NCBI GenBank assembly: GCA_012517735.1
Contig: JAAYUK010000063.1
Span: 2,671-66,670, forward strand
Source: Nitrospiraceae bacterium
Lineage (GTDB): Bacteria; Nitrospirota; Thermodesulfovibrionia; Thermodesulfovibrionales; Dissulfurispiraceae
DNA length: 64,000 nucleotides
Reading direction: 5' to 3'
Position numbers and translations under genes: made by a program. Positions 43,458 to 58,591 of this stretch are shown here, piece after piece. The notes beneath the pieces were generated by a model, which searched no databases, was not told the DNA's origin, and was given only the letters and a program-made list of their open reading frames with translations. Within the stretch, counting starts at the first letter, position 1. Each line of letters begins with the position of its first letter.

Positions 43458-44123
43458 TCAGGCTGTCTTCTGATCCGGAAAGGAGAGCGCCCCTTTGGGA
43501 CAGGCTGCCACACAGGTTCCGCATTTGATGCAGTCATTGTCCTGAAGTGTTCCTGCGGCCTTGTCCTTATAGGGTGCGAGCTGCATCGGGCATGCCTTTG
43601 CACAGAGCGTGCAGTCGATGCAGGTGTCGGCGACCGCAAGCGGTTTTTTCCCGGATGATATCCAGTTTGCAATGGTTCCCATCGGACAGACATGGCACCA
43701 TGTGCGCGGATGGATCCCTATGCCGAGGACAATGCCGATCGATGTCGTCACCGTCAAAACAACAACGAATGCCTTGCCGATGCCGTCGATATCCGGCCAC
43801 GCATATGCTATTTGTATCCCCAGAACGGCAAAGAGCAGCAGGATCATGCCTATGCGGGTGCCGGTCGAACGGAACACTGCGGGAACAGCCCTTTTCCTGC
43901 TGATGCGGTCGAGAAACAGATCGTAGAAGCTGCCGCGCGGACAGAGCCAGTCGCACCACTGGCGGCCGCGGAATGCTGCGATCCCCAATGCGCCGACCAT
44001 GCAGCCCAGAAGCAGAAAGCCGAGTTTCGGCCAGAACCAGCCGCCGATGACGACCAGCGGCAGCCCGTACCAGGTATATGATTGAAGACGCCTTCTGTGT
44101 TTTCTGAATTCCTTGAGATTCAT
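43458..44123 (-). CDS. Membrane-bound 4Fe-4S polyferredoxin (NapH/MauN-like)
   Basis: TM helices with CxxxCP motifs (WCDWLCPRG, WCHVCPMG). C-terminal 2x[4Fe-4S] (CIDCTLCAKACP..CIKCGTCVAACP). Confidence 0.8.
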   Translation of the reverse strand: MNLKEFRKHRRRLQSYTWYGLPLVVIGGWFWPKLGFLLLGCMVGALGIAAFRGRQWCDWLCPRGSFYDLFLDRISRKRAVPAVFRSTGTRIGMILLLFAVLGIQIAYAWPDIDGIGKAFVVVLTVTTSIGIVLGIGIHPRTWCHVCPMGTIANWISSGKKPLAVADTCIDCTLCAKACPMQLAPYKDKAAGTLQDNDCIKCGTCVAACPKGALSFPDQKTA

Positions 44124-44536
44124 TTCCTTCCTGCTTTCTTCTGTCGCATATATGACAGATAGGTTTCCATATCACATTTGCCCGTTTTTTTCTGGAATTC
44201 GGTGCAGTCCCTGAGCGATCGCAGATCTTCCTTTGCCTGTGCGCTTGCAGACAGTTCACTTCTCAGCACATCCATCAGCGTCTGCTGCGGAAGCGGCAGG
44301 TTTTTTTTGAGAGAATAAAAGATCATCTTCCCTTCGCGCCTGTCATCAAGGTAACCGCCTTTCATCAGAAGGGAGAGGTTCCTTGATACCAGCGGCTGAG
44401 ACATGCCCAATACTCCCATGATCTGGCAAACGCAAAGTTCTTTGCGGTCCAGCAGCAAAAGTATGCGTATGCGTGATGCATCCGCCAGAAGCTTGAAGTG
44501 ATCAATCGCCGTTCTCATAAACATATTTAAATCCAT
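44120..44536 (-). CDS. ArsR/SmtB family metalloregulator (CVC motif) with Cys-containing C-terminal extension
   Basis: ..LLADASRIRILLLLDRKELCVCQIMGVLGMSQPLVSRNLSLL... ATGA overlap with the polyferredoxin gene. Confidence 0.85.
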   Translation of the reverse strand: MDLNMFMRTAIDHFKLLADASRIRILLLLDRKELCVCQIMGVLGMSQPLVSRNLSLLMKGGYLDDRREGKMIFYSLKKNLPLPQQTLMDVLRSELSASAQAKEDLRSLRDCTEFQKKTGKCDMETYLSYMRQKKAGRK

Positions 44537-44608
44537 TTATATGAAAAAAGTCAACCGTTATCTCTCGCCTCCCGGTGGTACAATAGAAAAAAAATGGAGG
44601 GAGGTCCC

Positions 44609-45424
44609 ATGCTTCGTTGCTTTTTGGCAGTGATGGTGTCGTTTGCTATTCTTTTGGTCGCTCCGGATTCTTCCCGGGAGAGTCATGCCATAGGATTCAT
44701 CAAATCCGTAACTCCCCTGAACATTTCTCCGAAGGGTCCGGGCGTTCCCCCTGGAGCGGGTACGCCGTCTGGGATCGATTCGCTGACTCCCCTGTTGACC
44801 TGGAGCGGCTCCGATTATTTCACCCAGAAAAGGGACTCCTGCGTGTTTGCGTTCTACCGCGTGATCGTCCGCGATGACCAGGGTCGCGCCGTGATTGACG
44901 AAGTGGTCGATACCGATGCGACATCGTACAAGGTCCCGCCCGGCATCCTTCAGTACGGACGTATCTACAGCTGGAGTTTCGAGCTGGTTACTGCCAGTCT
45001 TGGACTGAACCAGCAGACAAAACAGATCGAAAAAAATGAATATAGACGGAAAGGGTCTCCGGAATCACTCTTTTTCAAAACACCTTCCGATCCGCGTCAG
45101 GCCGGGCAACCTGCCGCACAGCGGCTCTCTGCGCAACTGGTTTCGTCGAGCGTTGTGGTGAATCCGCAGCAGGCCCTGCTGAAGCCGGCAGAGAAGGTTC
45201 TGCTCAGAATAGCAGGCGGGAATCCGCCTTATCTTATTGAAAACGGGGTTGCCGGACTGGGTGTCAAAAAAATTTCGGATACGGAGTTCGAGCTGACCAT
45301 GCCAACCGGCAGAAAAACGCATGTTCTTGCCACACAGGTGCAGGGTTCGATGAAAGACATCAAGAAGATTGTGATCATGGATTCGCGAAGGCAGCAGTTT
45401 GTTTTTTATTACGGAGCTGAGTAG
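44609..45424 (+). CDS. Secreted hypothetical protein with FN3-like module
   Basis: Signal peptide MLRCFLAVMVSFAILLVAP and GGAGGGAGG RBS. ..PLLTWSGSD..YRVIVRDDQG..TSYKVPPGILQYGRIYSWSFE resembles FN3. No family was recognised. Confidence 0.55.
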   Translation: MLRCFLAVMVSFAILLVAPDSSRESHAIGFIKSVTPLNISPKGPGVPPGAGTPSGIDSLTPLLTWSGSDYFTQKRDSCVFAFYRVIVRDDQGRAVIDEVVDTDATSYKVPPGILQYGRIYSWSFELVTASLGLNQQTKQIEKNEYRRKGSPESLFFKTPSDPRQAGQPAAQRLSAQLVSSSVVVNPQQALLKPAEKVLLRIAGGNPPYLIENGVAGLGVKKISDTEFELTMPTGRKTHVLATQVQGSMKDIKKIVIMDSRRQQFVFYYGAE

Positions 45425-45427
45425 GGG

Positions 45428-45469
45428 TTGATCATTTCGGGATGCGTTCATTATAATGTGCATATGCAC
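45428..45469 (+). promoter_or_regulatory. Sigma70 promoter plus 12-bp palindromic operator for the NifX-like/DUF134/YedE operon
   Basis: TTGATC (45428-33), 18-nt spacer, TATAAT (45452-57), immediately followed by the perfect palindrome GTGCATATGCAC (45458-69). Confidence 0.7.
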
Positions 45470-45489
45470 AAAATGAGCGGAGGTTTTTC

Positions 45490-45870
45490 ATGAAAATCTG
45501 TTTCCCGGTTGAACAGTCAGAAGGCATGCAGAGCAAGGTGTACGGTCACTTCGGGTCAGCCCCGGTGTTTGTTGTGGTCGATACGGAAGTACAGTCGGTA
45601 ACCGAAATCGTCAATCGTGATCTCCACCATCAGCATGGCGCCTGCAGCCCGATCAAGGCGCTCGGCGGGGCTGCTGTCGACGCGATTGTTGTCGGCGGCA
45701 TCGGAGCCGGTGCATTGATGAAGTTGCAGGAGGCGGGCATGCAGGTATATCGGGCCGGTGCATACACGATTGCCGAGAATATGAATTTGATGCAAAGGGG
45801 CATGCTCCAGATTCTGCAGCCGCATCAGGTCTGCGGCGGCCATGCTCACGGCGGCGGCTGCTCCCACTGA
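45490..45870 (+). CDS. NifX/NifB-like (dinitrogenase FeMo-cofactor-binding fold, COG1433; orange-protein-like) protein with Cys/His tail
   Basis: MKICFPVEQSEGMQSKVYGHFGSAPVFVVVD..AIVVGGIGAGAL..AGMQVY.., tail CGGHAHGGGCSH. Paralog of 58192-58566. Confidence 0.85.
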   Translation: MKICFPVEQSEGMQSKVYGHFGSAPVFVVVDTEVQSVTEIVNRDLHHQHGACSPIKALGGAAVDAIVVGGIGAGALMKLQEAGMQVYRAGAYTIAENMNLMQRGMLQILQPHQVCGGHAHGGGCSH

Positions 45871-45953
45871 GGGTTTCGACAGCATGCAATTCTGTCTCCC
45901 CGTAGAGACGGATAACGGATTGCGTAGTCAGGTTCTTGGGCATAATTAAGATC

Positions 45954-46241
45954 ATGGGACGAACGAAGAAACCCAGAACCTGCGGCTGCCCGTTTGACGA
46001 GCTGAAATGCTGCATATTCAAACCGCGGGGCATCCCGATGCATTCGCTGCAGCGTACGGTCATCAGTCTGGATGAAATCGAGGCCCTTCGTCTGTGTGAC
46101 GGAGAAAGTCTGACGCAGGAGGAAGCCGGTACCCGCATGGGGATTTCCCGGGGGACGGTTCAGCGGTTGCTGGAGAGCGGCAGAAGAAAAACCATTTCAG
46201 CGCTCGTTGATGCAACGGCAATTATAATCGAAAAACCATAG
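45954..46241 (+). CDS. DUF134 (UPF0251) predicted DNA-binding protein
   Basis: ..FKPRGIPM..ISLDEIEALRLCDGESLTQEEAGTRMGISRGTVQRLL.. is a sigma-70 region-4-like HTH. Cys-rich N-terminus (CGC..CC). Confidence 0.8.
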   Translation: MGRTKKPRTCGCPFDELKCCIFKPRGIPMHSLQRTVISLDEIEALRLCDGESLTQEEAGTRMGISRGTVQRLLESGRRKTISALVDATAIIIEKP

Positions 46242-46287
46242 GCTTATGTAGCGGTAAAAACCCTTTTGCGGCAGAAGGGGGGTAACG

Positions 46288-47163
46288 ATGCCATCGAATT
46301 TTTTTCTGCGGAGTTTCATTTCTCTGCTCACCACGCTCAGCTTCCTGCTTGCTTCAATAACCGGGATCGTGCTCTTTATCGTTCCCCAGGGACGTGTGGC
46401 TTACTGGACCGACTGGAAACTGCTTGCGCTCTCAAAAACCGATTGGGGCAATGTCCATATCTCCGCCTGTGTGATATTCATGATTGCGGGAAGTATCCAT
46501 TTGTATTTCAACTGGCCGGTTTTTCTCAGCCACCTGAAAGATCGTGTGAAACGAACCTACACGCTCCGGAAGGAACTTGCCGCGGCAGTTCTTCTTTCGA
46601 TACTTGTCGTAGCGGGGTCCATCGCTCCGTTTCCGCCTATGAGCTGGCTTCTGTCGCTCAATACGCAGATCAAGGAGTACTGGGTGAACAAGGGATACGG
46701 TGAGCCTCCGTTCGGGCATGCCGAGCAGGTTTCGCTTGCTGCGCTCGCGCGACGGGAGAACATCGATCTGCAACAGGCCATGGACGGCATGCGCAGGCGC
46801 GGTATTGTGGTTGCCGGCGAGCAGGAGACGCTCGAGAGCATCGCAAAAAAGAACAAAACCTCACCGGCTGCGCTTTTCGCACTCATGAAGCTCAGCCCCG
46901 CGAAATCTCCGGTCAACATTCCTGCTTCGGAAAACCGGCCTCGGCTTTCGGCAGTTGATCTCGAAGCGAAGTTTTCGGGAAGCGGCATCGGACGCAAAAC
47001 CGTTCCCGAGGTCGTTGCAGAAATCGGACTCCCACGCGAAGTTGCTGAGCGGCGTCTTGCAGCGAGGAATATCCATGTGCGCGAGGGTGAGACCTTGAAA
47101 GAGACTGCCGCCCGTCTCGGAATAAAACCGATTGATATTGTGAAGGGTCTTGCAGATGACTAG
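46288..47163 (+). CDS. DUF4405-like membrane protein with soluble C-terminal domain
   Basis: Four predicted TM helices (..LTTLSFLLASITGIVLFIVP..HISACVIFMIAGSIHLYFNW..). The family call is from memory. Confidence 0.6.
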   Translation: MPSNFFLRSFISLLTTLSFLLASITGIVLFIVPQGRVAYWTDWKLLALSKTDWGNVHISACVIFMIAGSIHLYFNWPVFLSHLKDRVKRTYTLRKELAAAVLLSILVVAGSIAPFPPMSWLLSLNTQIKEYWVNKGYGEPPFGHAEQVSLAALARRENIDLQQAMDGMRRRGIVVAGEQETLESIAKKNKTSPAALFALMKLSPAKSPVNIPASENRPRLSAVDLEAKFSGSGIGRKTVPEVVAEIGLPREVAERRLAARNIHVREGETLKETAARLGIKPIDIVKGLADD

Positions 47164-47207
47164 TCGCAGAACGGTGCGGTAAGCTTGGAGCAGAAAGGAG
47201 TATGCAC

Positions 47208-47555
47208 ATGCAGAAGTATGCGCTCTTTGTTTTCAATGGTGAGATGATGTGTTTTGTCCATGTCCTTCTGAACGCGATTCAGATGCATGAACGGGGGCTT
47301 GAAGCGCGCATTGTCATGGAAGGAGCATCGACCAGGCTTCTTCCGGAACTGGTGAAGCCTGACAATCCCCTTGCCGGGCTCTTTGCAAAGGCAAAAGAGC
47401 AGGGGCTTGTCGATGGCGTCTGCCGGGCGTGCTCGCAGAAGATGGGCACGCTGGCCGAAGCCGAAGCACAGGGGTTGCCGCTTCTTGATGATATGCAGGG
47501 ACATCCCGGCATGGCGGGCTACACTGCCCGGGGGTACACACTAATCACATTTTGA
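47208..47555 (+). CDS. DsrE/DsrF-like family protein (putative sulfur/selenium carrier)
   Basis: ..YALFVFNGEMMCFVHVLLNA..IVMEGASTRLLPEL..GVCRACSQKMG..GHPGMAGY... ATG at 47208 is 9 nt after AGGAG (alternative 47202). Confidence 0.55.
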   Translation: MQKYALFVFNGEMMCFVHVLLNAIQMHERGLEARIVMEGASTRLLPELVKPDNPLAGLFAKAKEQGLVDGVCRACSQKMGTLAEAEAQGLPLLDDMQGHPGMAGYTARGYTLITF

Positions 47556-47574
47556 GCCTGCAGAAGGAGGCGAT

Positions 47575-48099
47575 ATGACACGAAGAGACGAGAAAAGCTG
47601 GAGTCCCTATGTCGCAGGTGCCTTGACCGGCATTGTGCTGATCCTGTCGGTCTGGGTTGCGGACAAGTATGTCGGTGCCTCGACGACTTTTGTCCGCACT
47701 GCGGGCATGATCGAGCAGCAGTTTGCGCCGGACAAGGTGAAGACGATGGAGTATTTTATCAAGGAAAAACCGATAGTCGACTGGCAGACACTGTTTGTAG
47801 CCGGCATCTTTATCGGTTCACTCTTTGCAGCCGTCATGTTTAACGACTTCAAGAAACAGGCGGTCCCTCCCATGTGGGAAAAGCGCTTTGGCCCGAGTAT
47901 CCCCAAACGTGCGGTGTTTGCATTTCTCGGCGGCGCGGTTGCGATGTTTGGAGCGCGCCTTGCCGACGGCTGACCGAGCGGTCATGGGCTGAGCGGGTCG
48001 CTCCAGCTTGCGGTCAGCGGTTTCATAGCGCTGATCTGTTTCTTTGTCGGCGGCATGGTTTCCGCCCGTATCATGTACGGAGGAGGTAACCAGAAATGA
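47575..48099 (+). CDS. YeeE/YedE-family half-transporter with in-frame TGA (probable selenocysteine) at 47971-47973
   Basis: ..FLGGAVAMFGARLADG-[TGA]-PSGHGLSGS.. matches the family GGCxSGHG motif. Read-through ends at a TGA (48097-99) that overlaps the next gene's ATG. GAAGGAGG RBS. Confidence 0.7.
47988..48007 (+). promoter_or_regulatory. Candidate bacterial SECIS hairpin
   Basis: GCUGAGCG-GGU-CGCUC(C)AGC begins 14 nt after the UGA. G/U-containing apical loop with one bulged C. Confidence 0.5.
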
Positions 48100-48623
48100 G
48101 TCCTCTCCTGTATGGTTTGATCACCGGCATCGCATTTGGTTTTCTTTTGCAGAGAGGAGGAGTGCTTCGGTATGATCGCCAGATCGGCGCGCTCCGACTG
48201 ATGGATATGACCATTCTGAAATTCATGCTCAGCGCGATTCTTGTCGCCATGGTCGGCGTATATCTGCTCAAGGACATGGGGATCGTCAAGCTGAATCTCA
48301 AACCGACCATTATAGGCGCCCAGATACTCGGCGGACTGATTTTCGGCCTCGGATGGGGCGTGCTCGGCTATTGCCCCGGCACGCAGATGGGTGCTCTGGG
48401 GGAAGGACGCTGGGATGCCGTGTGGGGCATCATGGGCATGCTGCTTGGAGCAGCACTGTATGCGGAAGCATATCCGATCATGAAAACGACTGTTCTGACC
48501 TGGGGCGTTTACGGCAAAATCACCCTGCCGCAGGTTCTCGGGGTCAATCATTGGCTGGTTATTGTTCCGTTGGTATTCGGTGGTATCGGGTTGTTCTTAT
48601 GGTTTGAAAAAAAGGGACTGTAG
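48096..48623 (+). CDS. YeeE/YedE-family half-transporter (Cys form)
   Basis: ..GIAFGFLLQRGG..GGLIFGLGWGVLGYCPGT..; GGAGGAGG RBS. 175 aa. Confidence 0.8.
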   Translation: MSPLLYGLITGIAFGFLLQRGGVLRYDRQIGALRLMDMTILKFMLSAILVAMVGVYLLKDMGIVKLNLKPTIIGAQILGGLIFGLGWGVLGYCPGTQMGALGEGRWDAVWGIMGMLLGAALYAEAYPIMKTTVLTWGVYGKITLPQVLGVNHWLVIVPLVFGGIGLFLWFEKKGL

Positions 48624-48632
48624 TACATTGAG

Positions 48633-48667
48633 CAGCGTGGGGCGACTATTCTCCCCACGCTGTTTTT
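48633..48667 (+). terminator. Intrinsic terminator ending the YedE operon
   Basis: CAGCGTGGGG-10 nt-CCCCACGCTG followed by TTTTT. Confidence 0.85.
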
Positions 48668-48862
48668 GATAGAACGGTTCCGTCTTGATCAAAAAAAACC
48701 AGAGTGGCAATCCTGCGAACGCTGATGCACTGGGGATTGCCATTTGGCGGTAGTTGAATCGCTCGCTGCCCGACGGGAGCGGGAAACGGAGCTGCATGGC
48801 TGTCCTGTCGGGCTCATGACAAAGCCAGGCGCATCGAATTGACATGGAAGTGCCTTCCCCGC

Positions 48863-50074
48863 TCAGCAACGGGAAACCAGCTGGACCGGCACCCTGCTTC
48901 CTTTTTCGAGTTTTTCGCACCCTTCGGCAATCATGACTATCGCGTCGGCCCGCGCCATGAATTGCAGACGGCTCGACAGCTTGAGCGGCCGGAATTCGAG
49001 TCCATCTCTTGTTTGTCGAAGCGATCCATAAATAAACTGTGTCCAGTCCTTTTGCCCCTGAACTGCTTCGGTGATGATCGCATGGGCAACGGGGAGTCCG
49101 CATATGGTGTGGCCGCCCAGCTTCAACAATCCCGGAAGTGCAAGCTGCAGAAACGCCATCTGATTCGACGGTGGTCCTCCGGGCAGGCAGAATACCGGTT
49201 TCGATGCGAGATGGCCGAAGCCAATCGCCTTTCCGGGCCCCATGCGTACCCGATGAAATGTCTTTTCCCATCCCATGTCATCCAGAATCTGCACCACACG
49301 ATCACGCTCCCCTTTCCATGCCCCTCCGCTGGTGATCAGGCAATCGGCAGTCCGCAGGACATCGCTGATTGCACGCCTGATGGCTGTCGCTGAATCATTG
49401 ACCACACGTTGTTTTGAGCTCATGCCATAGATGGAGCACCACGAGGCGATGGTGACCAGATTGCTTGCAAAGACCATCCCGTCCCGGATTTTCCGGCCAA
49501 CGGCAACCACCTCGTCGCCGGTCGCGACAATGCCGACACGCGGGGATCGGTACACTGGGATTTTCTCATGTCCGGCCGCGGCCAGAAGTCCGATCTGCGA
49601 CGGCGAAAGACGGGAGCCCTTTTCAACGAGCAGGTCGCCGATTGCAGCGTCAGTCCCTTTTTCCAGGATATTTCTCCCCCTGGCCGACGGAGCGGAAACA
49701 GAAACGGTCCCATTGTCGCAGGCAGTAAATTCCTCTGCGACCACTGCATCAGCTCCATCCGGTATCGCGGCCCCCGACATTATTCGTACGGTCGTTCCCG
49801 GCACGACTCTGATTATCTCTGATGAACCGGCCATGCGACTGCCGGTCAGCCTGAGTTGTACCGGACACGCTGGTGACGCACCGGCGATGTCGGAGGAGAT
49901 GACCGCATATCCGTCTTTCAGCGAGATATCAACGGAGGGAGTATCGATCAACGAAGCTACCGGTGATGCAGCCACCCTGCCGGTGAGTTTACCGATAGGC
50001 ACATCCTCGGCCGGCAGCGGCAGAATGCTGCCAACCGTCATTGCAAGCGCTTCATTGAATGATATTTCGGGCAT
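48863..50074 (-). CDS. moeA: Molybdopterin molybdenumtransferase
   Basis: ..DISLKDGYAV..RIMSGAAIPDGADAVV..GDEV......I.D.N......ITSGG...G..D... Confidence 0.88.
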   Translation of the reverse strand: MPEISFNEALAMTVGSILPLPAEDVPIGKLTGRVAASPVASLIDTPSVDISLKDGYAVISSDIAGASPACPVQLRLTGSRMAGSSEIIRVVPGTTVRIMSGAAIPDGADAVVAEEFTACDNGTVSVSAPSARGRNILEKGTDAAIGDLLVEKGSRLSPSQIGLLAAAGHEKIPVYRSPRVGIVATGDEVVAVGRKIRDGMVFASNLVTIASWCSIYGMSSKQRVVNDSATAIRRAISDVLRTADCLITSGGAWKGERDRVVQILDDMGWEKTFHRVRMGPGKAIGFGHLASKPVFCLPGGPPSNQMAFLQLALPGLLKLGGHTICGLPVAHAIITEAVQGQKDWTQFIYGSLRQTRDGLEFRPLKLSSRLQFMARADAIVMIAEGCEKLEKGSRVPVQLVSRC

Positions 50075-50113
50075 ATAATCCTTTCCGGGAAGCTTCTTTG
50101 CCTGAAGCAGTGC

Positions 50114-50509
50114 CTATGGACGCTCTGTCAACTGAATGATCGCTTCTTTTTTTATCTCATCCACCAGAAACGAACATGCCGCAAAACAGCGATCGCGTGT
50201 CGCTCCGGACACCATCACCAATAGAACGGAATCACGCGGTCCGACACGCCCGATTCTGTGGACGACCAGAATCTGATTGAGCACAAACCGCTGAGCCGTT
50301 TCAGCTGCGAGCCCGGCGAGACGCTGGTTAACATCCGTGCTGCGTGGTATCAGTTCCACACCAGAAAAATCCGCAATCTGCTTTCCGGGCCGCTTCACCA
50401 TGCCGTGGTGACTGACCACCGTTCCGCTCCGGTCATCGTCCTGATCAATGAACGTCCTGTACAAAGCCAGATAATCTATCGGTTCCTCTGTTGCATAGGC
50501 TGTTATCAT
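50114..50509 (-). CDS. moaE: Molybdopterin synthase catalytic subunit MoaE-like
   Basis: ..GTVVSHHGMVKRPGK..ILVVHRIGRVGPRDSVLLVMVSGATRDRCFAACSFLVDEIKK... ATG at 50509 with GGAGG RBS. Confidence 0.75.
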   Translation of the reverse strand: MITAYATEEPIDYLALYRTFIDQDDDRSGTVVSHHGMVKRPGKQIADFSGVELIPRSTDVNQRLAGLAAETAQRFVLNQILVVHRIGRVGPRDSVLLVMVSGATRDRCFAACSFLVDEIKKEAIIQLTERP

Positions 50510-50642
50510 GGAGCCTCCGAATCCGTTTGTTGGTTGCTGTCCATTACGACTCAAAAGGGCGTCCAGTCGCTCCCCTGCTTGTGTATCACTGCCTGCTCAT
50601 GACACAATAACCATAATTTTTTTGCAGCGGTAAAGGAGACCT

Positions 50643-51101
50643 ATGCCACGTCCCAAATGCCAGAGACAGATCGCCGGACTCCCTGCCTCTACCTACTTCA
50701 AGCCGCGGGGAATCCCGATGTCGGATCTCGAGGAAGTAATCCTGACGATCGATGAAGTGGAAGCGATACGCCTTGCCGATCACGAAGGGCTCTATCAGGA
50801 ACAGGCGGCCGAGTTCATGAAGATTTCCCGCCAGACGTTCGGGCGGGTAATCGCCTCTGCGCACCGGAAGATCGCCGATGCCCTGGTTACCGGTAAGGCA
50901 TTGCGGATTGAAGGCGGTGTTGTCAGTTTCGCGCAGGCGACAAAATACCGGTGCGCTTCCTGTGATGAAAAATGGTCGCCTCCGAGCGGCACGGGTGCGC
51001 CCGCAATCTGTCCGTCCTGCGGCAGCAGTGCTCTTGGCGCTCATGCAGACATCCATCACCGTCACAGAAAAGGCCGGGCCGGTAAGAACTCCCGGGGTTA
51101 A
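50643..51101 (+). CDS. DUF134 DNA-binding protein fused to a C-terminal CxxC..CxxC zinc ribbon
   Basis: MPRPKCQRQI..YFKPRGIPM..IDEVEAIRLADHEGLYQEQAAEFMKISRQTFGRV.., then ..YRCASCDEKW..ICPSCGS. Confidence 0.8.
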   Translation: MPRPKCQRQIAGLPASTYFKPRGIPMSDLEEVILTIDEVEAIRLADHEGLYQEQAAEFMKISRQTFGRVIASAHRKIADALVTGKALRIEGGVVSFAQATKYRCASCDEKWSPPSGTGAPAICPSCGSSALGAHADIHHRHRKGRAGKNSRG

Positions 51102-51340
51102 CCGCAGTGCGGTTCGGCGCAGGGCGTAGCACTGCCGCAACAGGTTGTCGCGCTCCCGCAGCGCGGCCGGGAAAGCCCCGCATCAGCAGACCCTTTCATG
51201 ATGAATCCGCTTCCTCCGGTAATAATCCGACGGCTCGGGGCAGCGCATTTCGGACACGGGCGGTCTTCCGTTTCCTGCATTGAGTGGATTACCTCAAACA
51301 GTTCTCCGCACGCATTGCAGCGGTAATCATATTTCGGCAT
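51098..51340 (-). CDS. FmdB-family zinc-ribbon protein
   Basis: MPKYDYRCNACGELFEVIHSM..RPCPKCAA.. with a Cys-rich tail. AGGAG RBS. Confidence 0.8.
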   Translation of the reverse strand: MPKYDYRCNACGELFEVIHSMQETEDRPCPKCAAPSRRIITGGSGFIMKGSADAGLSRPRCGSATTCCGSATPCAEPHCG

Positions 51341-51387
51341 GGCAACTCCTTTCTGGTGCGCCGCTCCGGATTTCACCGGACGGCGGA

Positions 51388-52230
51388 TTATTTCAGCACA
51401 ATCCGAAGTCCTGCATAGCCGATGCGGACTGCGTGTGGAAATGCGTCTGTCAGTGCGGCGATTGCCCGTTCCCCGCTGCAGTGGCAGGGGACGATCAATT
51501 CAGGCGCAAAGGACTGCAGCGCCGAGACCGTGTATGCGATGCGCTCGTCCGATGCGTTCATGAGATGCAAGCCTCCGATAACGGCACGTATTCTCTCATC
51601 TGGTCCCGTAAGGCTGATCACATGATGGAGCGTGTTTACAATTCCCGCGTGGGCACAGCCGACACAGACGACAATTCCTTCCGGCGTTCGTATCCAGAGC
51701 GCCATGTCGTCTTCGAGCAGGTCGCTCCTGACGGGGGCAGGGTCAAGATAAAAGGGGCCGCCGGTATCCTCAATACCATTGTTCCGGGGAATATGACCGG
51801 TGATGCCGACGGTTCTGCTCAGCTGAAACGGTTCGGCCGATGGACAGAAGCGGCCGGTCGGCAGGCTTTCCGCCGCAGCCCGTGCATCTCCCTGCATGCC
51901 GATGCTTCTGACGGTACCGTCACGGATACTATAGCGTTCGCGAAGCGCTTCCGGATGACAGAACAGATGCGGATACCTGGCGAGAGAAAGAACATGGGCG
52001 ACTCCGCCTGTGTGGTCATAATGGCCATGGCTCAGGATCACCGCATTCGTCAGCGACAGATGAATTCCCATCTTTTCGGCATTCGGGATCAACGCACCAC
52101 CCTGCCCGGTGTCGAACAGCAGCCGCATGCCGTCCGCCTCGATCCAGAGGGCGAGGCCATGTTCGCGCACGAAACCGTCGGCAGTCCGGTTATCTGCGAG
52201 AATGCTGATGATCACGCGCTCTTTGTCCAT
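51388..52230 (-). CDS. MBL-fold metallo-hydrolase
   Basis: ..LLFDTGQG.. and HGHYDHTGG (HxHxDH motif). Confidence 0.85.
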   Translation of the reverse strand: MDKERVIISILADNRTADGFVREHGLALWIEADGMRLLFDTGQGGALIPNAEKMGIHLSLTNAVILSHGHYDHTGGVAHVLSLARYPHLFCHPEALRERYSIRDGTVRSIGMQGDARAAAESLPTGRFCPSAEPFQLSRTVGITGHIPRNNGIEDTGGPFYLDPAPVRSDLLEDDMALWIRTPEGIVVCVGCAHAGIVNTLHHVISLTGPDERIRAVIGGLHLMNASDERIAYTVSALQSFAPELIVPCHCSGERAIAALTDAFPHAVRIGYAGLRIVLK

Positions 52231-52361
52231 GGACGACCTTCTCCTGTCCGATGCCTGTGTTTCAACAGATCATCATCGAAAGGAATCCCCCGATGATGAC
52301 TACGTACAGTATATCCGTTTTCCCGACCAATGCGGCAAGTACAGCAGAGCGGGCTACAAAC

Positions 52362-54059
52362 CTATTTTTCCCTCGGATACGGCCATGCCGCAATGCCGCC
52401 TTCCATTACCCTGACATTCTTCCACCCGTTCGCTTCAAGCACCAGTGCCGCTTCATAGCCGCGCAGGGAGATCTTGCAGAACGCGATGATTTCACGATCC
52501 TTGTCAGAAGGAAGTTCCGCCAGTCGTTTCCGGAGTGCTCCGAGCGGGATGAGTGTTTCGCCGGCGCCGATACGCATCTCTTCATATTCGTCAGGACCGC
52601 GGGCATCGAGCAGAAACGGTTTTTCGCCGCGGTCGAGTTTGGTCTTTACCTCTTCAGGGGTCAGCCCCTTCAGCCGCCCAAGCAGTTTGTTTTGCATGAG
52701 GTGGGCCGTCGCAATGCCGTGGTCGATTGCGAGCGAAAACGGTGGCGCATACGGAAGGTCGGCGTTTGCCATGTCGTCGACCGTCAGATTGCCGAGGATC
52801 GCCATTGCCCATTGCGCTATCTGCCGGTTCACATTGCCGGGCCCGGCACACTGGGCGCCGAGGATTCGTCCGGTTTTCCGGTCGGCAACCAGTTTGGTGA
52901 CAAGGAGCTTCCCCTTCATGAAACCGGGCAGGTCCGGGCTTGCGTTGATCACCGATACCGCATCGAATCCGTGCTCTCTGGCCGAGCGCTCCGAGAGGCC
53001 GGTTGCGCCGGCGGAAAAATCAAAGACTTTGCAGATGCCGGTCTGGATGGTTCCCGGAAAGGTCACCCGGTTGCCGAGCACGGCGTTTTCACCCGCAACG
53101 CGTCCTTCGAGATTGGCGAGATCGCCATAGGGGGCAAGCACTTTCTTCCCGGTGATCCGGTGCGTCAGCTCCACACAGTCGCCGACAGCGTAAATGTCGG
53201 GATCGGACGTCTGCATATACTGATCGACGACGATTCCTCCCGTATCTCCGATAGCGAGTCCTGCTTTTTTCGCCAGAACGGCATTGGGCGCAACGCCGAT
53301 GGCGACCACCGCAAGCTCGCAGGGCAGTTCAGTGCCGTTCTGCAGTTTGACGCCGGTCAGCACCCCATCGTTTCCCAGAAAAGCCGCGATACCGTTGCCG
53401 GTGATCACATTGACGCCTTTGCTCCTGACATGGTTTTCGACCAGTTTTGCGATGTCGAAGTCGAGAAAGGTCAACAGCTGGGGCAGCATCTCGATGACGG
53501 TGAGTTCCAGTCCGGCAAGTTGAAGGGCTTCACAGGTTTCGATGCCGATCAATCCCTCGCCGATAATGACCGCCTTTTTGATCGTGCCGCCATCCCGCAC
53601 GGCGCGCAAATAGTCCGCATCCTGCATGGACTGGAGGGTCGTGATGCCTTTCAGGTCGGCTCCTGGGACCGGCGGCCTCCGGGGGACCGATCCGGTCGCA
53701 AGAATCAGTTTGTCGTAGGTCAGTGAGCCGGTTTCCCCCGTGAGCAGATTGGTGAAGGAAACCCGTTTCTCTGCGCGTTCGATGCTGGTCACCTCCGTCG
53801 AGACGCGCGCATCGATCCCTTTTGCGTTCAGATAGAATTTGGGATCGCGCACTACCCCGGCAGGAGTGGCAAGCAGCTGGTTGCGGTCGTCGAAGAATCC
53901 GCCGACGTAATACGGATAGCCGCATGAGGCCATGGAGAGCTCCGGGCCCTTCTGGAGTAAAACAATCTCTGCGTGTTCATTGCAGCGTCGTGCCTTTGCC
54001 GCTGCCTTCGGTCCGGCCGCCGAGCCGCCGATAACGACAATACGCGTGGTTTGAGTCAT
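52362..54059 (-). CDS. CoA-disulfide reductase/NADH-oxidase-family flavoprotein with C-terminal rhodanese domain
   Basis: VVIGGSAAGPKAA (FAD), redox Cys in ..SMASCGYPYY.., second Rossmann motif IIGEGLIGIE, and rhodanese loop ..IAFCKISLRG. Confidence 0.85.
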   Translation of the reverse strand: MTQTTRIVVIGGSAAGPKAAAKARRCNEHAEIVLLQKGPELSMASCGYPYYVGGFFDDRNQLLATPAGVVRDPKFYLNAKGIDARVSTEVTSIERAEKRVSFTNLLTGETGSLTYDKLILATGSVPRRPPVPGADLKGITTLQSMQDADYLRAVRDGGTIKKAVIIGEGLIGIETCEALQLAGLELTVIEMLPQLLTFLDFDIAKLVENHVRSKGVNVITGNGIAAFLGNDGVLTGVKLQNGTELPCELAVVAIGVAPNAVLAKKAGLAIGDTGGIVVDQYMQTSDPDIYAVGDCVELTHRITGKKVLAPYGDLANLEGRVAGENAVLGNRVTFPGTIQTGICKVFDFSAGATGLSERSAREHGFDAVSVINASPDLPGFMKGKLLVTKLVADRKTGRILGAQCAGPGNVNRQIAQWAMAILGNLTVDDMANADLPYAPPFSLAIDHGIATAHLMQNKLLGRLKGLTPEEVKTKLDRGEKPFLLDARGPDEYEEMRIGAGETLIPLGALRKRLAELPSDKDREIIAFCKISLRGYEAALVLEANGWKNVRVMEGGIAAWPYPREK

Positions 54060-54082
54060 GTGCGTGATCCTCCTCGTTTTAT

Positions 54083-54311
54083 CTCAAAACTGTCATTCGG
54101 ATTCGACCGAAATCGCTCAGAGTCCGGCAGGGCAGGCAACAGAGCGGATTTATTCGGCGAAGCGGCACATACAGGACGTATGTGCCGGGCGAATACCTCG
54201 GACGACGGCTGGACGCCGTCCGGGAAGCGGGGCCTCCGAAAATGTCGGAGACTTTTCGGGGTGGCAGTTGAGCGGCGTTGCTTGCCGTGCCGAGCTAATG
54301 AGAATTCTCGG
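54083..54311 (+). mobile_element. MITE copy 3 (229 bp)
   Basis: CTCAAAACTGTCA...TGAGAATTCTCGG, flanked by direct TTTAT at 54078-82 and 54312-16. The near end lies 23 bp upstream of the flavoprotein start codon. Confidence 0.78.
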
Positions 54312-54322
54312 TTTATAAGCAT

Positions 54323-54412
54323 AAAAAAACGCATGGGCCCTGTCAGCAGAGGATAGCATGCAGACCGCGAGAAGTACGACCGACCCGCTGAACAGAACGG
54401 ACGGCCCATGCG
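54323..54412 (-). terminator. Long-stem terminator-like structure after the mrp/ORP-like operon
   Basis: Reverse strand has CGCATGGGCC, about 63 nt, GGCCCATGCG, then TTTTTTT. The interior can extend the stem (CTGTTCAGC/GCTGACAG). Confidence 0.5.
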
Positions 54413-54422
54413 CATCAGGGCG

Positions 54423-55262
54423 CTAAGCGATATTCCGGACAAGGGTATCGACCAACGCCGAGAAAGCCCTGCCCGAAGGGCTCTCCGCGGCATGCTGTAT
54501 CACCGGTTCCCCACTGTCGCCGGATGCGGCAACTGCGGCATCAAGCGGAATGCTTCCCAGAAACGGGATCTGCATCTCCGCTGCGAGGGCTTCGCCACCG
54601 CCTTTTTTGAAGATATTCACGACCGTCCCGCAGTGCGGACAGGCAAAACCGCTCATGTTTTCGACCAGTCCGATGATCGGAATGCCGACTTCCCGGCAGA
54701 AGGTGATCGATTTGCGCACATCCTCCAGCGCGACATCCTGGGGGGTTGTGACGATTATCGCCCCGTCGGGGTTCTTGAGCAGTTGAACGATTGAAATCGG
54801 TTCGTCGCCGGTGCCCGGGGGGCAATCGACAACGAGCCAGTCACGGGGTCCCCATGCAACATCGCCGAGGAACTGCTTGATGACCCCATGTTTCAGCGGA
54901 GCACGCCAGATGAGCGCATTGTTGCGGTCCTGCAGGAGAAATCCGACCGACATGACCGACAGCAGTCCGTCATACCCGACCGGAAGCAGGGATTCTCCAT
55001 CCTGCTCCGGCAGCATCCCTTCGAGTCCGAGAATTTTTGGGATACTCGGCCCATGAATATCGATATCGACCAGACCGGTCCTCAGGCCGCGCAGGGCGAG
55101 TCCGACGGCAATATTTGCGGCCACCGAGCTTTTGCCGACGCCTCCCTTGCCGGAAAGAACGAGTATTTTGTGGCGGATTTGCTCCATGCGGTGCTGCACC
55201 GCATTCTGCTCCTGTTCAATCCATTGTGTGTCATTGCTGCCGCACGCATGTGGTGTGCTCAT
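54423..55262 (-). CDS. mrp: Mrp/NBP35 (ApbC-type) Fe-S cluster carrier ATPase
   Basis: ..ILVLSGKGGVGKSSVAANIA..VDIDIHGPS..DCPPGTGDE..CPHCG... Start is uncertain (55262, 55295 or 55187). Confidence 0.85.
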   Translation of the reverse strand: MSTPHACGSNDTQWIEQEQNAVQHRMEQIRHKILVLSGKGGVGKSSVAANIAVGLALRGLRTGLVDIDIHGPSIPKILGLEGMLPEQDGESLLPVGYDGLLSVMSVGFLLQDRNNALIWRAPLKHGVIKQFLGDVAWGPRDWLVVDCPPGTGDEPISIVQLLKNPDGAIIVTTPQDVALEDVRKSITFCREVGIPIIGLVENMSGFACPHCGTVVNIFKKGGGEALAAEMQIPFLGSIPLDAAVAASGDSGEPVIQHAAESPSGRAFSALVDTLVRNIA

Positions 55263-56169
55263 GTCCGGTGTTCCTTTCTTGCTGTATGGTGTCAAAAAGT
55301 CTCAGAATATTCTTGGTAATTGTCCGCAATGCCTCCGCGGCCCGGCTTTCGGGATAGCAACGGGCCAGAGGAATCCCCTGCGCGATGGCGAGCGGGACGT
55401 GAATGTCATACGGGATTTCTCCGAGTACGGTGATTCCGCGTTCCGCCATGCGGGAACGGATGGTTTCAGCCCCCTCAGGATTGATATCCGCCTTGTTGAT
55501 GATTACGCCGGTCACCGGGTCAAAATATGCCGTCACTTCAAGCAGGCGCTCCAGATCGCTCAGCGCCGGCGCGGTCGGTTCCGTTATGGCCAGCACAGCG
55601 TCGCAGCCTTTCAGCGATGAGATAACCGGACAGCCGATGCCGGGCGGGCCGTCGATGATGAGATAGTCAGCCCGGTCATCCTGTGCGACGTTTCGTGCTT
55701 CATTTTTGACCAGATCCACAATCTTGCCGGAACTGCTCTGACCAACCGTCAACTCGCCCGAAACGAGATTGCGCACACCGTTCCGGAACAGATGCAGATA
55801 GCCGTTCTGCATGCGTTTTATGCTGACGGCGTGTTCCGGGCATTCGGCCACACACGCTCCGCAGGCTTCACAAAAGAGCGGCAGCATGACCGGTATCTTC
55901 TCATCCGGCAGCAGTGCGCCGAAACTGCACACCGCAGTGCAATCCATGCAGCCGATGCAACGGGTCTCGTCAATCACGGCTTTTTCGGATGCAAAAACCG
56001 GAGCGCTTTTTATCGGCTCAGCTCCGGTGATGATATGCAGATTCGGTGCGTCCACATCGGTATCGGCCAGTGTGATGATGAGGCCGGCAGGCAGGAGTTC
56101 CGCCAATGAGGCAGTGATGCTCGATTTGCCGACACCGCCTTTTCCGCTCAGGATGACCACTTCTTTCAT
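55231..56169 (-). CDS. MinD-superfamily P-loop ATPase with inserted 2x[4Fe-4S] ferredoxin domain (COG1149-like)
   Basis: MKEVVILSGKGGVGKSS.., CIGCMDCTAVC.., CEACGACVAECP. The ATG overlaps (ATGA) the upstream gene's stop. Confidence 0.85.
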   Translation of the reverse strand: MKEVVILSGKGGVGKSSITASLAELLPAGLIITLADTDVDAPNLHIITGAEPIKSAPVFASEKAVIDETRCIGCMDCTAVCSFGALLPDEKIPVMLPLFCEACGACVAECPEHAVSIKRMQNGYLHLFRNGVRNLVSGELTVGQSSSGKIVDLVKNEARNVAQDDRADYLIIDGPPGIGCPVISSLKGCDAVLAITEPTAPALSDLERLLEVTAYFDPVTGVIINKADINPEGAETIRSRMAERGITVLGEIPYDIHVPLAIAQGIPLARCYPESRAAEALRTITKNILRLFDTIQQERNTGHEHTTCVRQQ

Positions 56170-57101
56170 TTCAGCCACTCCCTTTCTATCCGCGCTGCCA
56201 AGTCGGTAAAGATGCGCGCTGCGGGCGAGTCAGGGTTCGTGCCGACAACGGGCAGTCCTTTCACATAGCTTTGCAGCAGGATACTGTCATGCGGAATTGA
56301 TGCAGCTACGGTAACATCCTTTGATGCAGCCTCCGGGGCAATCGTTGCCTGGCTGCCGCTCAGATTTGAGCGGTTCAGGATAATGCGGGCCGGTATTGCG
56401 AGCATTTCACAGAGATCGAGGATGAGACCGAGATCATGCATGCCGACACGGGTCGGTTCGGTGACCGCATACGCGCAGCCGGCGCCCGCGAGCGCCGCAA
56501 TAACGGTGCAATGTACCCCGGGGGCGGTATCGACGACTATGATGTCGAACCGGTCTGCTTCCGCCGCCAGGCGATCCTTGAGCGCCCGCACTATAATGGT
56601 GCTCTCCTCTCGTCCCGGGAGCAGCTCTCCGCTGAAAAGCGTAAGATTACCGGATTCTGTCCGGCAGGTAGCGCCGACGGACATCCAGCGGGTCAGCAGC
56701 GCTCCTGTCGGACAGGCGTTTATACAGGCTTTGCACCCATTGCATTCTCCCATCAATATCGGTGTCTGATCCGGCGGCAGAAAGAGCGCATTGCGGCGGC
56801 ATGCCGCAATGCAGTCCCCGCAGTGTGTGCAGAGCGATGGTTCCACGAGCGGCATGGCAACCTGGACATCGATATGGTCTTTGAGGGGAAGCGAGAGCAG
56901 AATGTGATTGTTCGGCGCTTCCGTATCCGCATCGACCAGTGCCACTGCATGTCCGCGGGCTGCCAGGGCAGCTGCAATATTGACGGCAACGGTTGATTTG
57001 CCGACACCACCTTTGCCACCCGTAACAGCAATAACCGGCGTTGCATACGGGTGATCGTGCAAGGCTTCCAGTTGCCGGGCGGTAAAGACCTCTGCAGTCA
57101 C
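56166..57101 (-). CDS. MinD-superfamily P-loop ATPase with inserted 2x[4Fe-4S] ferredoxin domain (second copy)
   Basis: ..VIAVTGGKGGVGKSTVA.., CTHCGDCIAAC.., CNGCKACINACP. GTG start overlaps the upstream stop (GTGA). Confidence 0.85.
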   Translation of the reverse strand: MTAEVFTARQLEALHDHPYATPVIAVTGGKGGVGKSTVAVNIAAALAARGHAVALVDADTEAPNNHILLSLPLKDHIDVQVAMPLVEPSLCTHCGDCIAACRRNALFLPPDQTPILMGECNGCKACINACPTGALLTRWMSVGATCRTESGNLTLFSGELLPGREESTIIVRALKDRLAAEADRFDIIVVDTAPGVHCTVIAALAGAGCAYAVTEPTRVGMHDLGLILDLCEMLAIPARIILNRSNLSGSQATIAPEAASKDVTVAASIPHDSILLQSYVKGLPVVGTNPDSPAARIFTDLAARIEREWLK

Positions 57102-57478
57102 GAGCGGCCTCGCCCGGCCGACCCTTTACGTGCCTGTGCCCCGGTGCTCCGCCGGAGCAGGCCGTCCGAATAGTTTTTCACGGCGGTTTTTACCTCCATG
57201 CCGGCGCTGAGCCCGTCGTAAATGGCAATGCCCGCCGCCTGCAGGGCTGCATATGCCTTGGGTCCGACGAACCCGGTAAGCACTGCGTTGACCCCTTTTT
57301 GTGCTACGCTCTGAGCGGCGGCTATGCCAGCGCCCTGCCCGGCGTCCATTGCCGGATTCGCAATCGTTTCGTGCTGCATGGTATCGGGATCCACGAGCAC
57401 GAAGAACGGCGCCCGGCCGAAGCGTTCATCAACGCGAGCATCCAGGCCGTGACCTGAAGCGGTTATGCAGATTTTCAT
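57098..57478 (-). CDS. NifX/NifB-like (COG1433, orange-protein-like) protein
   Basis: MKICITASGHGLDARVDERFGRAPFFVLVD..VLTGFVGPKAY..AGIAIY.., with a basic tail and no Cys/His tail. Confidence 0.85.
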   Translation of the reverse strand: MKICITASGHGLDARVDERFGRAPFFVLVDPDTMQHETIANPAMDAGQGAGIAAAQSVAQKGVNAVLTGFVGPKAYAALQAAGIAIYDGLSAGMEVKTAVKNYSDGLLRRSTGAQARKGSAGRGRS

Positions 57479-57508
57479 TCCATGACTCCCTTCATCGTTG
57501 CGTGCATC

Positions 57509-57772
57509 CTATTCGTTCTTGGTGAGTGCATCAAGGCGTTTCCGCACGTCTGTCAGCGCCCGTTCGAGGGCGGTAGCTTCCTCGGTAAGCCATGCACGTT
57601 CGTCGGAAGGATCCGTTGCACGCAGTCCCGGCTGGAAACGGGCTCCCAAGAACCGGCGCCCCATGCCACGTCCGCTAAACCCCTGACGCCGCATCCCGGC
57701 GCCGCACGGCCCCAAACCTCTGCCGGTACCCGGGCCGAACCCCTGAGGACCTGTCTGATTGAATCCCGGCAT
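57509..57772 (-). CDS. DUF5320 protein (Gly-rich N-terminus, coiled-coil C-terminus)
   Basis: MPGFNQTGPQGFGPGTGRGLGPCGAG..., then ..LTEEATALERALTDVRKRLDAL. AGGAGG RBS. Confidence 0.75.
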   Translation of the reverse strand: MPGFNQTGPQGFGPGTGRGLGPCGAGMRRQGFSGRGMGRRFLGARFQPGLRATDPSDERAWLTEEATALERALTDVRKRLDALTKNE

Positions 57773-57812
57773 GATCATCACCTCCTTTCTTTAATAGCAT
57801 ATGCCCATAATT

Positions 57813-58190
57813 TCAGTCCAAAAACTCTGCACACCCAGCGAGACGGGCAATTTCTTTGAGCATGCAGAGTCCGTTGGGAAGGCTGCATGCCCCGGTTTTT
57901 CGCTGTGCGGCTGGATGTTCCGGCTCGACGATATCTCCGAGCACACCATATATCGAGAGCATAAGAGCTCGCGCGCTCTCTCCGCCTGACCAGTTGGTCA
58001 CGCACGCTTCCGTCTCGATCAGTTTCTTTCGTGCGGCTTCCAAGGTCACTGCGAAGGATTTACAGTTTCTGCACAACTCATCCTTCTGCTGGTGGTGCAG
58101 CATACCGAACAGGCAATGCAGTGTCCGGACGCCGGCCTCGATCGTGTTTTCGGGACGGACTCTCGCGGTACTGTCAGTCGTATGCGCCAT
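57813..58190 (-). CDS. Cys-rich hypothetical protein
   Basis: 125 aa with 8 Cys (..LHCLFG..CRNC..EACV..GACSLPNGLCML..GCAEF). The ATG lies 1 nt after the upstream stop. No family was recognised. Confidence 0.5.
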   Translation of the reverse strand: MAHTTDSTARVRPENTIEAGVRTLHCLFGMLHHQQKDELCRNCKSFAVTLEAARKKLIETEACVTNWSGGESARALMLSIYGVLGDIVEPEHPAAQRKTGACSLPNGLCMLKEIARLAGCAEFLD

Positions 58191-58191
58191 G

Positions 58192-58566: not shown

Positions 58567-58591
58567 GAGAACCTCCTTGGTGTTTGATGTT

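Follow-up and report, generated by a model that had tools for sequence, protein, structure and literature searches.

IscR, a member of the Rrf2 family, and cyanobacterial SufR are autoregulatory repressors that sense iron-sulfur (Fe-S) clusters and control the operons for Fe-S cluster biogenesis. For genes of the orange protein (ORP) type, the only control known to us is that by sigma-54 and OrpR in Desulfovibrio. Published accounts describe the orp genes of Desulfovibrio vulgaris Hildenborough as controlled by sigma-54, IHF, and OrpR, an activator that senses Fe-S (PMC8359166, PMC3897727, PMC4641369). IssA is the thioferrate Fe-S storage protein of Pyrococcus furiosus (PMC5524996), and two IssA homologues are present at higher levels in Methanococcus voltae grown on pyrite than in cells grown on Fe(II) and sulfide (PMC8516115); no regulator or operator for issA was found in the literature consulted, which includes these two papers. 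Here we describe two near-identical palindromes in a 64,000-nucleotide stretch of DNA from a Nitrospiraceae bacterium (GenBank assembly GCA_012517735.1, contig JAAYUK010000063.1, positions 2,671 to 66,670 of the forward strand), the whole of which we call the window. Each palindrome lies in the promoter of a gene for a NifX-like protein, one at the head of an operon that also encodes YedE-type proteins (operon 1) and the other at the head of an ORP-like gene cluster. Judged from comparative sequence analysis, these palindromes are very probably operators bound by proteins of the DUF134 family.

This is a regulator-operator pair of a familiar kind that is new for an uncharacterized, widespread family, and we found no published description of it. 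As with IscR and SufR, the predicted regulator is a small helix-turn-helix (HTH) protein encoded in or beside the operon that it would control, the palindrome lies across part of the core promoter, the predicted targets serve Fe-S assembly and trafficking, and the protein has conserved cysteines (three Cys and an Asp in the a-type subfamily described below). In contrast to IscR and SufR, to which they are unrelated in fold and family, DUF134 proteins have an HTH that resembles sigma-70 region 4 and is not a winged helix of the Rrf2 or DeoR type, and the operator differs. The DUF134 targets encode NifX/IssA-like and ORP proteins rather than Isc or Suf proteins, and cluster binding by DUF134 is hypothetical.

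The 12-bp palindrome GTGCATATGCAC, which the initial annotation had placed beside a -10 box, is indeed present at 45458-45469, and its first base lies directly 3' of the TATAAT at 45452-45457. The complete symmetric unit is the 14-mer TGTGCATATGCACA at 45457-45470 (site 1; no strand assigned), whose first base is also the final base of the -10 box and which spans the expected transcription start (transcription starts throughout are predicted from promoter matches). The promoter, P1, occupies 45428-45457 on the plus strand and consists of a -35 hexamer TTGATC (45428-45433), an 18-nt spacer, and the TATAAT -10 hexamer; it matches the consensus at 10 of 12 positions in a consensus scan. This match and the layout of the orthologous sites described below support the view that the palindrome covers the expected start in the manner of a repressor site. 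The near-identical palindrome that had been reported in the promoter of the paralogous NifX-like gene (minus strand, 58566-58192) is also present, as the 14-mer TGAGCATATGCTCA at 58598-58611 (site 2; no strand assigned). It fills the spacer between the -35 and -10 hexamers of promoter P2 (minus strand, 58592-58620), which has a -35 hexamer TTGACT (58620-58615), a 17-nt spacer, and a -10 hexamer TAAAAT (58597-58592), in the layout TTGACT-ttt-TGAGCATATGCTCA-TAAAAT. P2 also matches the consensus at 10 of 12 positions and is kept in two related loci (L082 and L084; L numbers designate the loci used for comparison). We assign site 1 to a predicted class A of operators based on motif matches and comparison across 80 loci, and site 2 to a predicted class B based on its sequence variant and layout, which match those of promoters of b-type DUF134 genes.

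The pattern GWGCATATGCWC has two exact matches in the window versus 0.03 expected, a count that was not reached in any of 100 dinucleotide-preserving shuffles of the window. Compared with this expectation, and given the conservation of the sites across phyla, the probability that the matches arose by chance is negligible. The same holds for the possibility that the element acts at the RNA level as a leader hairpin or attenuator. Although the 14-mer as RNA folds into a 5-bp hairpin of about -5 kcal/mol, site 2 is upstream of its -10 box and would not be transcribed, and the expected start at site 1 falls inside the palindrome. We rejected the hairpin or attenuator reading on the position of site 2. 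A search against Rfam gave no match in 44000-60000.

To place site 1 in a wider context, we compared 80 genomic loci (570 kb) anchored on a-type DUF134 orthologues of the short protein encoded at 45954-46241. Homologues of this protein are found mainly in Desulfuromonadales, Geobacterales, and Nitrospirota, and the loci span Nitrospirota, Desulfuromonadales/Geobacterales, Desulfobulbales-type metagenome-assembled genomes (MAGs), Myxococcota, Gemmatimonadales, Aminicenantes, and one betaproteobacterial MAG. The core octamer GCATATGC occurs 48 times in the 570 kb versus 8.7 times expected. The 14-mer TGTGCATATGCACA occurs 70 times in the 80 loci (30 exact copies and 40 with one mismatch) versus about 2 in a shuffle. 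Of the 80 loci, 64 have a site with no more than one mismatch, and 67 have one with no more than two. Nearly all of these sites lie just before the first gene of an operon that holds DUF134 and usually a NifX-like gene, and the gene order varies, with NifX-DUF134 in Desulfuromonadales and Geobacter and DUF134-NifX in Nitrospirota and others. In the syntenic relative L096, TGTGCATATGCACA is kept ahead of the NifX/DUF134a/YedE operon. Phylogenetic footprinting upstream of the operons of relatives, which had been proposed as a check on the palindrome, thus finds it conserved.

The layout of these promoters is also conserved. Among 69 aligned class-A sites, the spacer is 16 to 19 nt, the -35 hexamer agrees with TTGACA in 5 or 6 positions at 42 sites, and the last T of the TAtaaT box is the first T of the operator at 65. 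Downstream of the operator there is an A-rich stretch followed by the ribosome-binding site. The protein-contacted region may be about 20 bp, because a T at position -3 and an A at position +16 are symmetrically conserved at the aligned sites. Several a-type promoters have either a pair of operators spaced by about 47 to 50 bp or a -35 box joined to a half-site (TTGACATATGCAC); these are L020 (3302/3348), L057 (3535/3585), L063 (3494/3541), L036 (3236/3286), L031 (2006/2034), and L051 (3855). The double sites suggest cooperative binding or looping.

Genes near the sites point to DUF134 as the binder. Within 2.5 kb of the sites in the 64 site-bearing loci, DUF134a is encoded in 63 loci and a NifX-like protein in 56. 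The next recurrent protein clusters are found in at most 10 loci, those at 10 being an SBF-family transporter and a DsrE-like protein, and no other DNA-binding protein is encoded within this radius in more than 10 of the 64 loci. DUF302 and NifU_N genes also recur in site-bearing operons. Since sites also lead operons that have a DUF134 gene but no NifX gene (L044, L045, L058, and L078), the site tracks DUF134, not NifX. The regulator gene is inside the operon headed by the predicted operator in the case of site 1 and DUF134a in the window, in about 64 a-type loci, and in 8 b-type loci. The DUF134b gene of the window is not in the operon headed by site 2 and lies 7.5 kb away.

The gene identities given in the initial annotation hold up in Pfam searches, which find three Nitro_FeMo-Co (NifX-like) proteins and two DUF134 proteins (PF02001; 68.0 bits for 45954-46241 and 83.0 bits for 50643-51101, with a cutoff of 27). 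The prediction that these DUF134 proteins are the binders is supported by the comparison of about 100 loci. A different regulator might be imagined, either of the CRP/FNR type or the ArsR-family protein encoded nearby at 44120-44536. CRP/FNR sites are 5-4-5 palindromes such as TTGAT-N4-ATCAA, a format that TGTGC-ATAT-GCACA shares, and ArsR-family genes are neighbors in the window, in L085, in L054, and on the Citrobacter plasmid described below. However, the last three bases of the central ATAT are invariant (69 of 69 sites) and its first A is kept in 65 of 69, unlike a free N4. CRP/FNR and ArsR genes are each present in a few at most of the 64 site-bearing loci. In addition, the operator variant follows the DUF134 subfamily. 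These results make binding by another regulator very improbable, and the ArsR neighbor in particular was rejected as the binder because its gene is not recurrent near the sites.

The AlphaFold2 model of DUF134a contains a three-helix HTH and has a mean predicted local distance difference test score (pLDDT) of 83, which exceeds 95 over residues 40 to 80. Foldseek aligned it with sigma-70 region 4 and with the DNA-binding domain of DeoR (SorC family) at 0.5 to 0.9 Å over 40 to 50 residues; these are generic HTH matches only, none at an E value of ≤0.001. A profile search of the PDB returned those HTHs only (best match DeoR, E = 6e-5) and no solved DUF134 structure. Bacillus subtilis DeoR (PDB 7bhy and 8r7y), which the DUF134 HTH matches over 40 aligned residues at 0.5 to 0.6 Å, is a repressor that binds a palindromic operator as an oligomer. 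In contrast to DeoR, which has a large sugar-phosphate-binding effector domain, DUF134 has a short Cys-bearing arm with or without a zinc ribbon, and the operators are unrelated.

The second DUF134 protein of the window (DUF134b, 152 amino acids; plus strand, 50643-51101; identified by Pfam) has a C-terminal zinc ribbon and the recognition helix SRQTFGR, and it is the predicted binder of class-B sites. It belongs to a b-type subfamily that is very large (3,804 sequence clusters at an E value of ≤1e-8). We sampled 8 distinct b-type loci (among L086 to L095), whose proteins are 57 to 65% identical to the window protein, and in 7 of these 8 loci the b-type gene is followed by a NifX-like gene. 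The element TGAGCATATGCT(C/T)A is found about 40 bp upstream of the b-type gene in 6 of the 8 loci, and the remaining two have degenerate versions of it there (L086, TGGTCATATGCTCA; L087, TGGGCATAAGCTCT). This element is always in the promoter spacer, in the order TTGACA, 4 to 5 nt, and operator, and the last two bases of the intact element begin the -10 box (C/T)ATAAT. Both the sequence variant and the layout of these b-type promoters are those of site 2 in the window.

Class-A half-sites read GTGCAT and are just downstream of the -10 box, whereas class-B half-sites read GAGCAT and are inside the spacer. When every NNGCATATGCNN occurrence was counted without bias, the third base of the half-site was T in 88 of 96 half-sites from a-type loci and A in 12 of 12 from b-type loci (Fisher p ~1e-12). 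Of 62 a-type proteins, 59 have the recognition helix SRGTVQR, and SRQTFGR is present in 9 of 10 proteins of the b-type sample (104 of 120 in a wider set); the two helices differ at three positions. The sites are conserved, they overlap near-consensus sigma-70 promoters, and they co-vary with the regulator subfamily. The initial annotation had described a single degenerate consensus in which W positions change symmetrically. The sites are related and the T/A exchange is symmetric between the two window sites, but the site-2 orthologue of a relative, TGGGCATATGCTCA, is asymmetric and therefore perfect symmetry itself is not conserved. Moreover, the single consensus gives way to two predicted operator classes that are separated by sequence, position, and DUF134 subfamily. 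Because the half-site base partitions by subfamily and the helices are fixed per class, the W is best read as a base pair by which the two paralogous regulators would distinguish their respective operators.

In both subfamilies the sites contain the core GCATATGC and the helix has S, R, T, and R, and hybrid sites occur both in a-type loci (TGTGCATATGCTCA in L048 and L079) and in a b-type locus (TGAGCATATGCACA in L085). These observations would fit a single shared operator, at which one DUF134 protein, both proteins interchangeably, or a heterodimer binds all GWGCATATGCWC variants and the T/A exchange only tunes affinity. We consider a shared operator unlikely, since not only the half-site base but also the position of the site (downstream of the -10 box versus in the spacer) splits by subfamily, and the helices are fixed per class. 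Instead, it is likely, from the pattern of sites and regulators across loci, that there is one operator class per DUF134 paralogue and that both paralogues act as repressors.

Several observations count against this assignment of operators to DUF134 paralogues. Presence of DUF134 was the basis on which loci were selected, and so co-occurrence is partly by construction; given this selection, the argument rests on the position of the sites, the lack of any other recurrent regulator, and the co-variation of subfamily and operator. Thirteen of the 80 a-type loci have no site within two mismatches. In most of those inspected, DUF134 is embedded in a longer operon or lies at the end of a contig, and the inspected loci yielded no other palindrome. 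The b-type sample is small (8 loci). The hybrid TGTGCATATGCTCA sites in L048 and L079 are beside a-type genes, and the hybrid TGAGCATATGCACA at 609-622 of L085, with one B half and one A half, is in the class-A position. The operon under this hybrid comprises two NifX genes, a gene of unknown function, two YedE genes, and, as its last gene, a b-type DUF134 gene, which hints at cross-recognition or heterodimers. Cross-recognition or cross-talk between the paralogues is therefore plausible. Finally, the promoter region of the window's DUF134b gene (50555-50642) has neither a class-A nor a class-B site, and L096 likewise has no operator before its DUF134b gene. The window's DUF134b promoter region does contain a weak inverted repeat, TTGTGT-N17-ACACAA (50579-50607), with 6-bp arms.

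In the mechanism that we propose, a DUF134a dimer would bind TGTGCATATGCACA at 45457-45470 and block RNA polymerase, resulting in negative autoregulation of operon 1, and DUF134b would bind TGAGCATATGCTCA at 58598-58611, and more weakly a third site at 57794-57807, to repress the ORP-like cluster. Bound protein that covers about -7 to +7 in class A, or about -13 to -26 in class B, would exclude RNA polymerase, and negative autoregulation would operate in class A and, in other genomes, in class B. The common core GCATATGC would correspond to S, R, T, and R of the helix, which the subfamilies share, and the T or A at half-site base 3 would correspond to the helix residues that differ between them. 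Site 2 and all b-type sites are between the -35 and -10 hexamers, where MerR-type activators bind, and DUF134 could thus be imagined to bind and activate, for example by MerR-like spacer remodeling at site 2. MerR targets have overlong spacers of 19 to 20 nt. In contrast, the promoters here have near-consensus hexamers and spacers of 16 to 18 nt, and so they should be strong unaided. DUF134 is not of the MerR family, and no known mode of activation is compatible with class-A sites, which extend over about -7 to +7. Activation is accordingly a reading to which we give little credence, and we retain repression.

Alignment of a-type DUF134 proteins shows a basic KKPR arm, an invariant Cys10, a Cys12 that is present in most, and an invariant Cys48-Asp49, while b-type proteins have one N-terminal Cys and a four-Cys ribbon. 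Operon partners of DUF134 include DsrE, NifU_N, YedE, TauE, coenzyme A-disulfide reductase (CoADR)-rhodanese, and MrpORP-like ATPases; MrpORP is reported to be an Fe-S carrier (PMC6345978). Because these partner genes are of the Fe-S and sulfur type, we propose an Fe-S or sulfide signal, in which loss or gain of an Fe-S cluster, or sulfide or persulfide modification, at the cysteines would derepress the genes for Fe-S storage and trafficking and for sulfur transport. That cluster, sulfide, or persulfide status at the DUF134 cysteines controls DNA binding is a tentative suggestion, possible rather than probable. The effector proposal is weak because the N-terminal cysteine region of the a-type model has low confidence (pLDDT of 55 to 67), Cys12 is not kept in every sequence, and Cys48 is absent from b-type proteins. 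More speculative, and in our judgment doubtful, is the idea that DUF134 and an obligate NifX/IssA-like partner make up a two-protein Fe-S/sulfide sensor that is widespread among anaerobes. The NifX-like protein would load or strip a cluster or thioferrate-type species on the Cys motif of the DUF134 repressor, and occupancy of the operator would then report how full the Fe-S store is. Paralogous pairs would have diverged in their recognition code (SR-x-T-xx-R helix versus N-GCATATGC-N flanks), and the module would have spread on enterobacterial resistance plasmids.

Operon 1 begins with the gene for a NifX/IssA-like protein (plus strand, 45490-45870; Nitro_FeMo-Co domain, Pfam 68 bits) that has the C-terminal tail HAHGGGCSH. 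The NifX-like proteins of the window resemble IssA in having an IPR003731/Nitro_FeMo-Co domain and a Gly-rich, Cys-containing tail (Gly/Cys/His). The gene for the a-type regulator DUF134a (95 amino acids, with the recognition helix SRGTVQR; plus strand, 45954-46241) is next; its assignment as the predicted binder of class-A sites is based on Pfam, alignment, AlphaFold2 and Foldseek results, and co-localization. The remainder of the operon, all on the plus strand, encodes a DUF4405 membrane protein (46288-47163; Pfam), an unknown protein from a 117-amino-acid open reading frame (ORF) (47202-47555), and YedE/Sulf_transp in two half-genes (47575-47973 and 48096-48623; Pfam), and these downstream genes recur after the site in L001, L085, and L096. 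The ORF that matches the C-terminal part of the Pfam model is the first of the two YedE/Sulf_transp ORFs (47575-47973). L001, L085, and L096 have the two-gene layout too, and it appears as DUF6691 on a Citrobacter plasmid. Downstream of operon 1, Pfam identifies MoeA and MoaE genes and then the gene for the second DUF134 protein with the zinc ribbon (50643-51101). Upstream, on the minus strand, are the ArsR-family gene (44120-44536) and a gene for a Fer4_5 membrane Fe-S protein (43458-44123). This pair is also present in L085, and it looks like a second, separate regulator of the neighborhood.

The ORP-like cluster under P2 extends over 52362-58566 on the minus strand. From its head it encodes the NifX-like protein (58566-58192; Pfam), an unknown 129-amino-acid protein (58202-57813), a DUF5320 protein (57781-57509; Pfam), a second NifX-like protein (57478-57098; Pfam), two MinD/ParA-Fer4 ATPases (57101-56166 and 56178-55231; Pfam), an Mrp/NBP35 ATPase (55295-54423; Pfam), and a CoADR-type flavoprotein with a rhodanese domain (54059-52362; Pfam). 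Beyond the flavoprotein gene, a 338-amino-acid ORF on the plus strand (51280-52296) without a family match overlaps a 280-amino-acid ORF on the minus strand (51388-52230) that encodes a metallo-beta-lactamase-fold protein, as in the syntenic L096. The minus-strand ORF, rather than the plus-strand one, is probably the real gene, and it may be the last gene of the cluster.

The gene content of the cluster under P2 is that of Desulfovibrio ORP operons, and it shares with the OrpR-controlled system a set of genes for DUF5320, ORP/NifX-like proteins, MinD-Fer4 ATPases, and MrpORP. Unlike that system, the window cluster has sigma-70-type promoters and DUF134-type putative operators and no match to a -24/-12 promoter; no sigma-54 promoter with at least 8 of 11 matching positions was found in 57700-58760 or 45250-45500. 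No enhancer-binding protein is encoded nearby, the neighbors being a phosphonate-binding protein, a histidine kinase, and a receiver-only response regulator. The ORP-like cluster described here has a different regulatory solution for homologous genes.

L082 and L083 have an ORP-like cluster with the same gene order. In the two relatives with an orthologous cluster, the 129-amino-acid protein is 67% identical to that of the window and the cluster head retains TTGACT-ttt-TGGGCATATGCTCA-TAAAAT; TGGGCATATGCTCA is found at the site-2 position in L082 to L084. These orthologous clusters were found via a homologue look-up, while a metagenome scan with the 129-amino-acid protein returned only one near-identical, truncated locus without the promoter.

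A third copy of the core within the cluster, the weaker class-B-like element TGGGCATATGCTAT (site 3; minus strand, 57794-57807), is intergenic and lies between the stop codon of the 129-amino-acid protein gene and the ribosome-binding site of the DUF5320 gene. It fits the class-B layout (TGGACT, 5 nt, TATGGGCATATGCTATTAA), and its left half, ATTATGGGCATATG, is kept upstream of DUF5320 in L082 and L084. A possible internal promoter at site 3 has TGGACT (57820-57815), 18 nt, and TATTAA (57796-57791); the consensus promoter scan of the window reported no promoter there. In all, the window holds 8 copies of the core GCATATGC versus 1.0 expected, and the largest value in a shuffle was 4. Five further copies outside the three operator-like sites (16116, 30744, 33859, 43801, and 57249) are apparently in coding sequence and have flanks that fit neither operator class.

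DUF134 spans bacterial phyla and, according to its Pfam description, is also present in archaea. A profile search returned 4,361 clusters at 50% identity, and across 150 representatives of these clusters the helix follows the pattern SR-x-T-x-x-R with variable x, which fits a common CATATG core with subfamily-specific flanks. Pfam and NCBIfam label the family "unknown function" or "hypothetical protein," and we found no functional paper on DUF134, UPF0251, COG1342, or PF02001 in the searchable literature. In a protein search, DUF134 was present in 197 plasmid records, mostly from Klebsiella, Citrobacter, Escherichia, and Enterobacter, and 114 of these are conjugative. On Citrobacter, Salinivibrio, Peptoclostridium, and Parabacteroides replicons, more distant DUF134 genes are each paired with a NifB/NifX-family gene, and the Peptoclostridium pair is followed by genes for two ATP-binding proteins and MrpORP. 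The related elements upstream are a tandem of TTGCATATGCCA and TAGCATATACCA in Citrobacter, TGGCATATGCCA in Salinivibrio, TGACATATGCCA and TGGCATATGTCA in Peptoclostridium, TAGCAAATGCCA in Acetoanaerobium, and TGAGCATTTGCTCA in Parabacteroides. The Citrobacter pair is on pKPC-933d (L097; NZ_CP026213.1, 3364-4120), and the neighbors of plasmid pairs include TauE/SafE, DUF6691, PaaI thioesterase, Dps, ArsR/SmtB, and FAD-oxidoreductase genes.

A 2026 report describes an Xtr site, GCATATGCACCACC, at -349 upstream of a Clostridioides difficile gene for a 4Fe-4S-binding protein and assigns this site to a 47-kDa XRE-family activator (PMC13260099). The Xtr probe contains TTGCATATGCAC (in the context cTTGCATATGCACc), which is a DUF134-type half-palindrome, and the target gene is of the kind found with DUF134 and in ORP clusters. 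This likeness may be a coincidence, or there may be a DUF134 site at that position.

These results provide the first predicted binding site and target genes for DUF134, a widespread family of anaerobes. The predicted core regulon comprises genes for NifX/IssA-like proteins, ORP-like MinD/Mrp ATPases, DsrE, YedE, and NifU-like proteins, and together with the motif, the promoter layout, and the paralogue-specific rule it makes the family directly testable. The presence of the same module on conjugative plasmids of Klebsiella and Citrobacter is of practical interest. More broadly, the DUF134 sites offer an entry to how strict anaerobes sense and regulate the storage and trafficking of Fe-S and sulfide.

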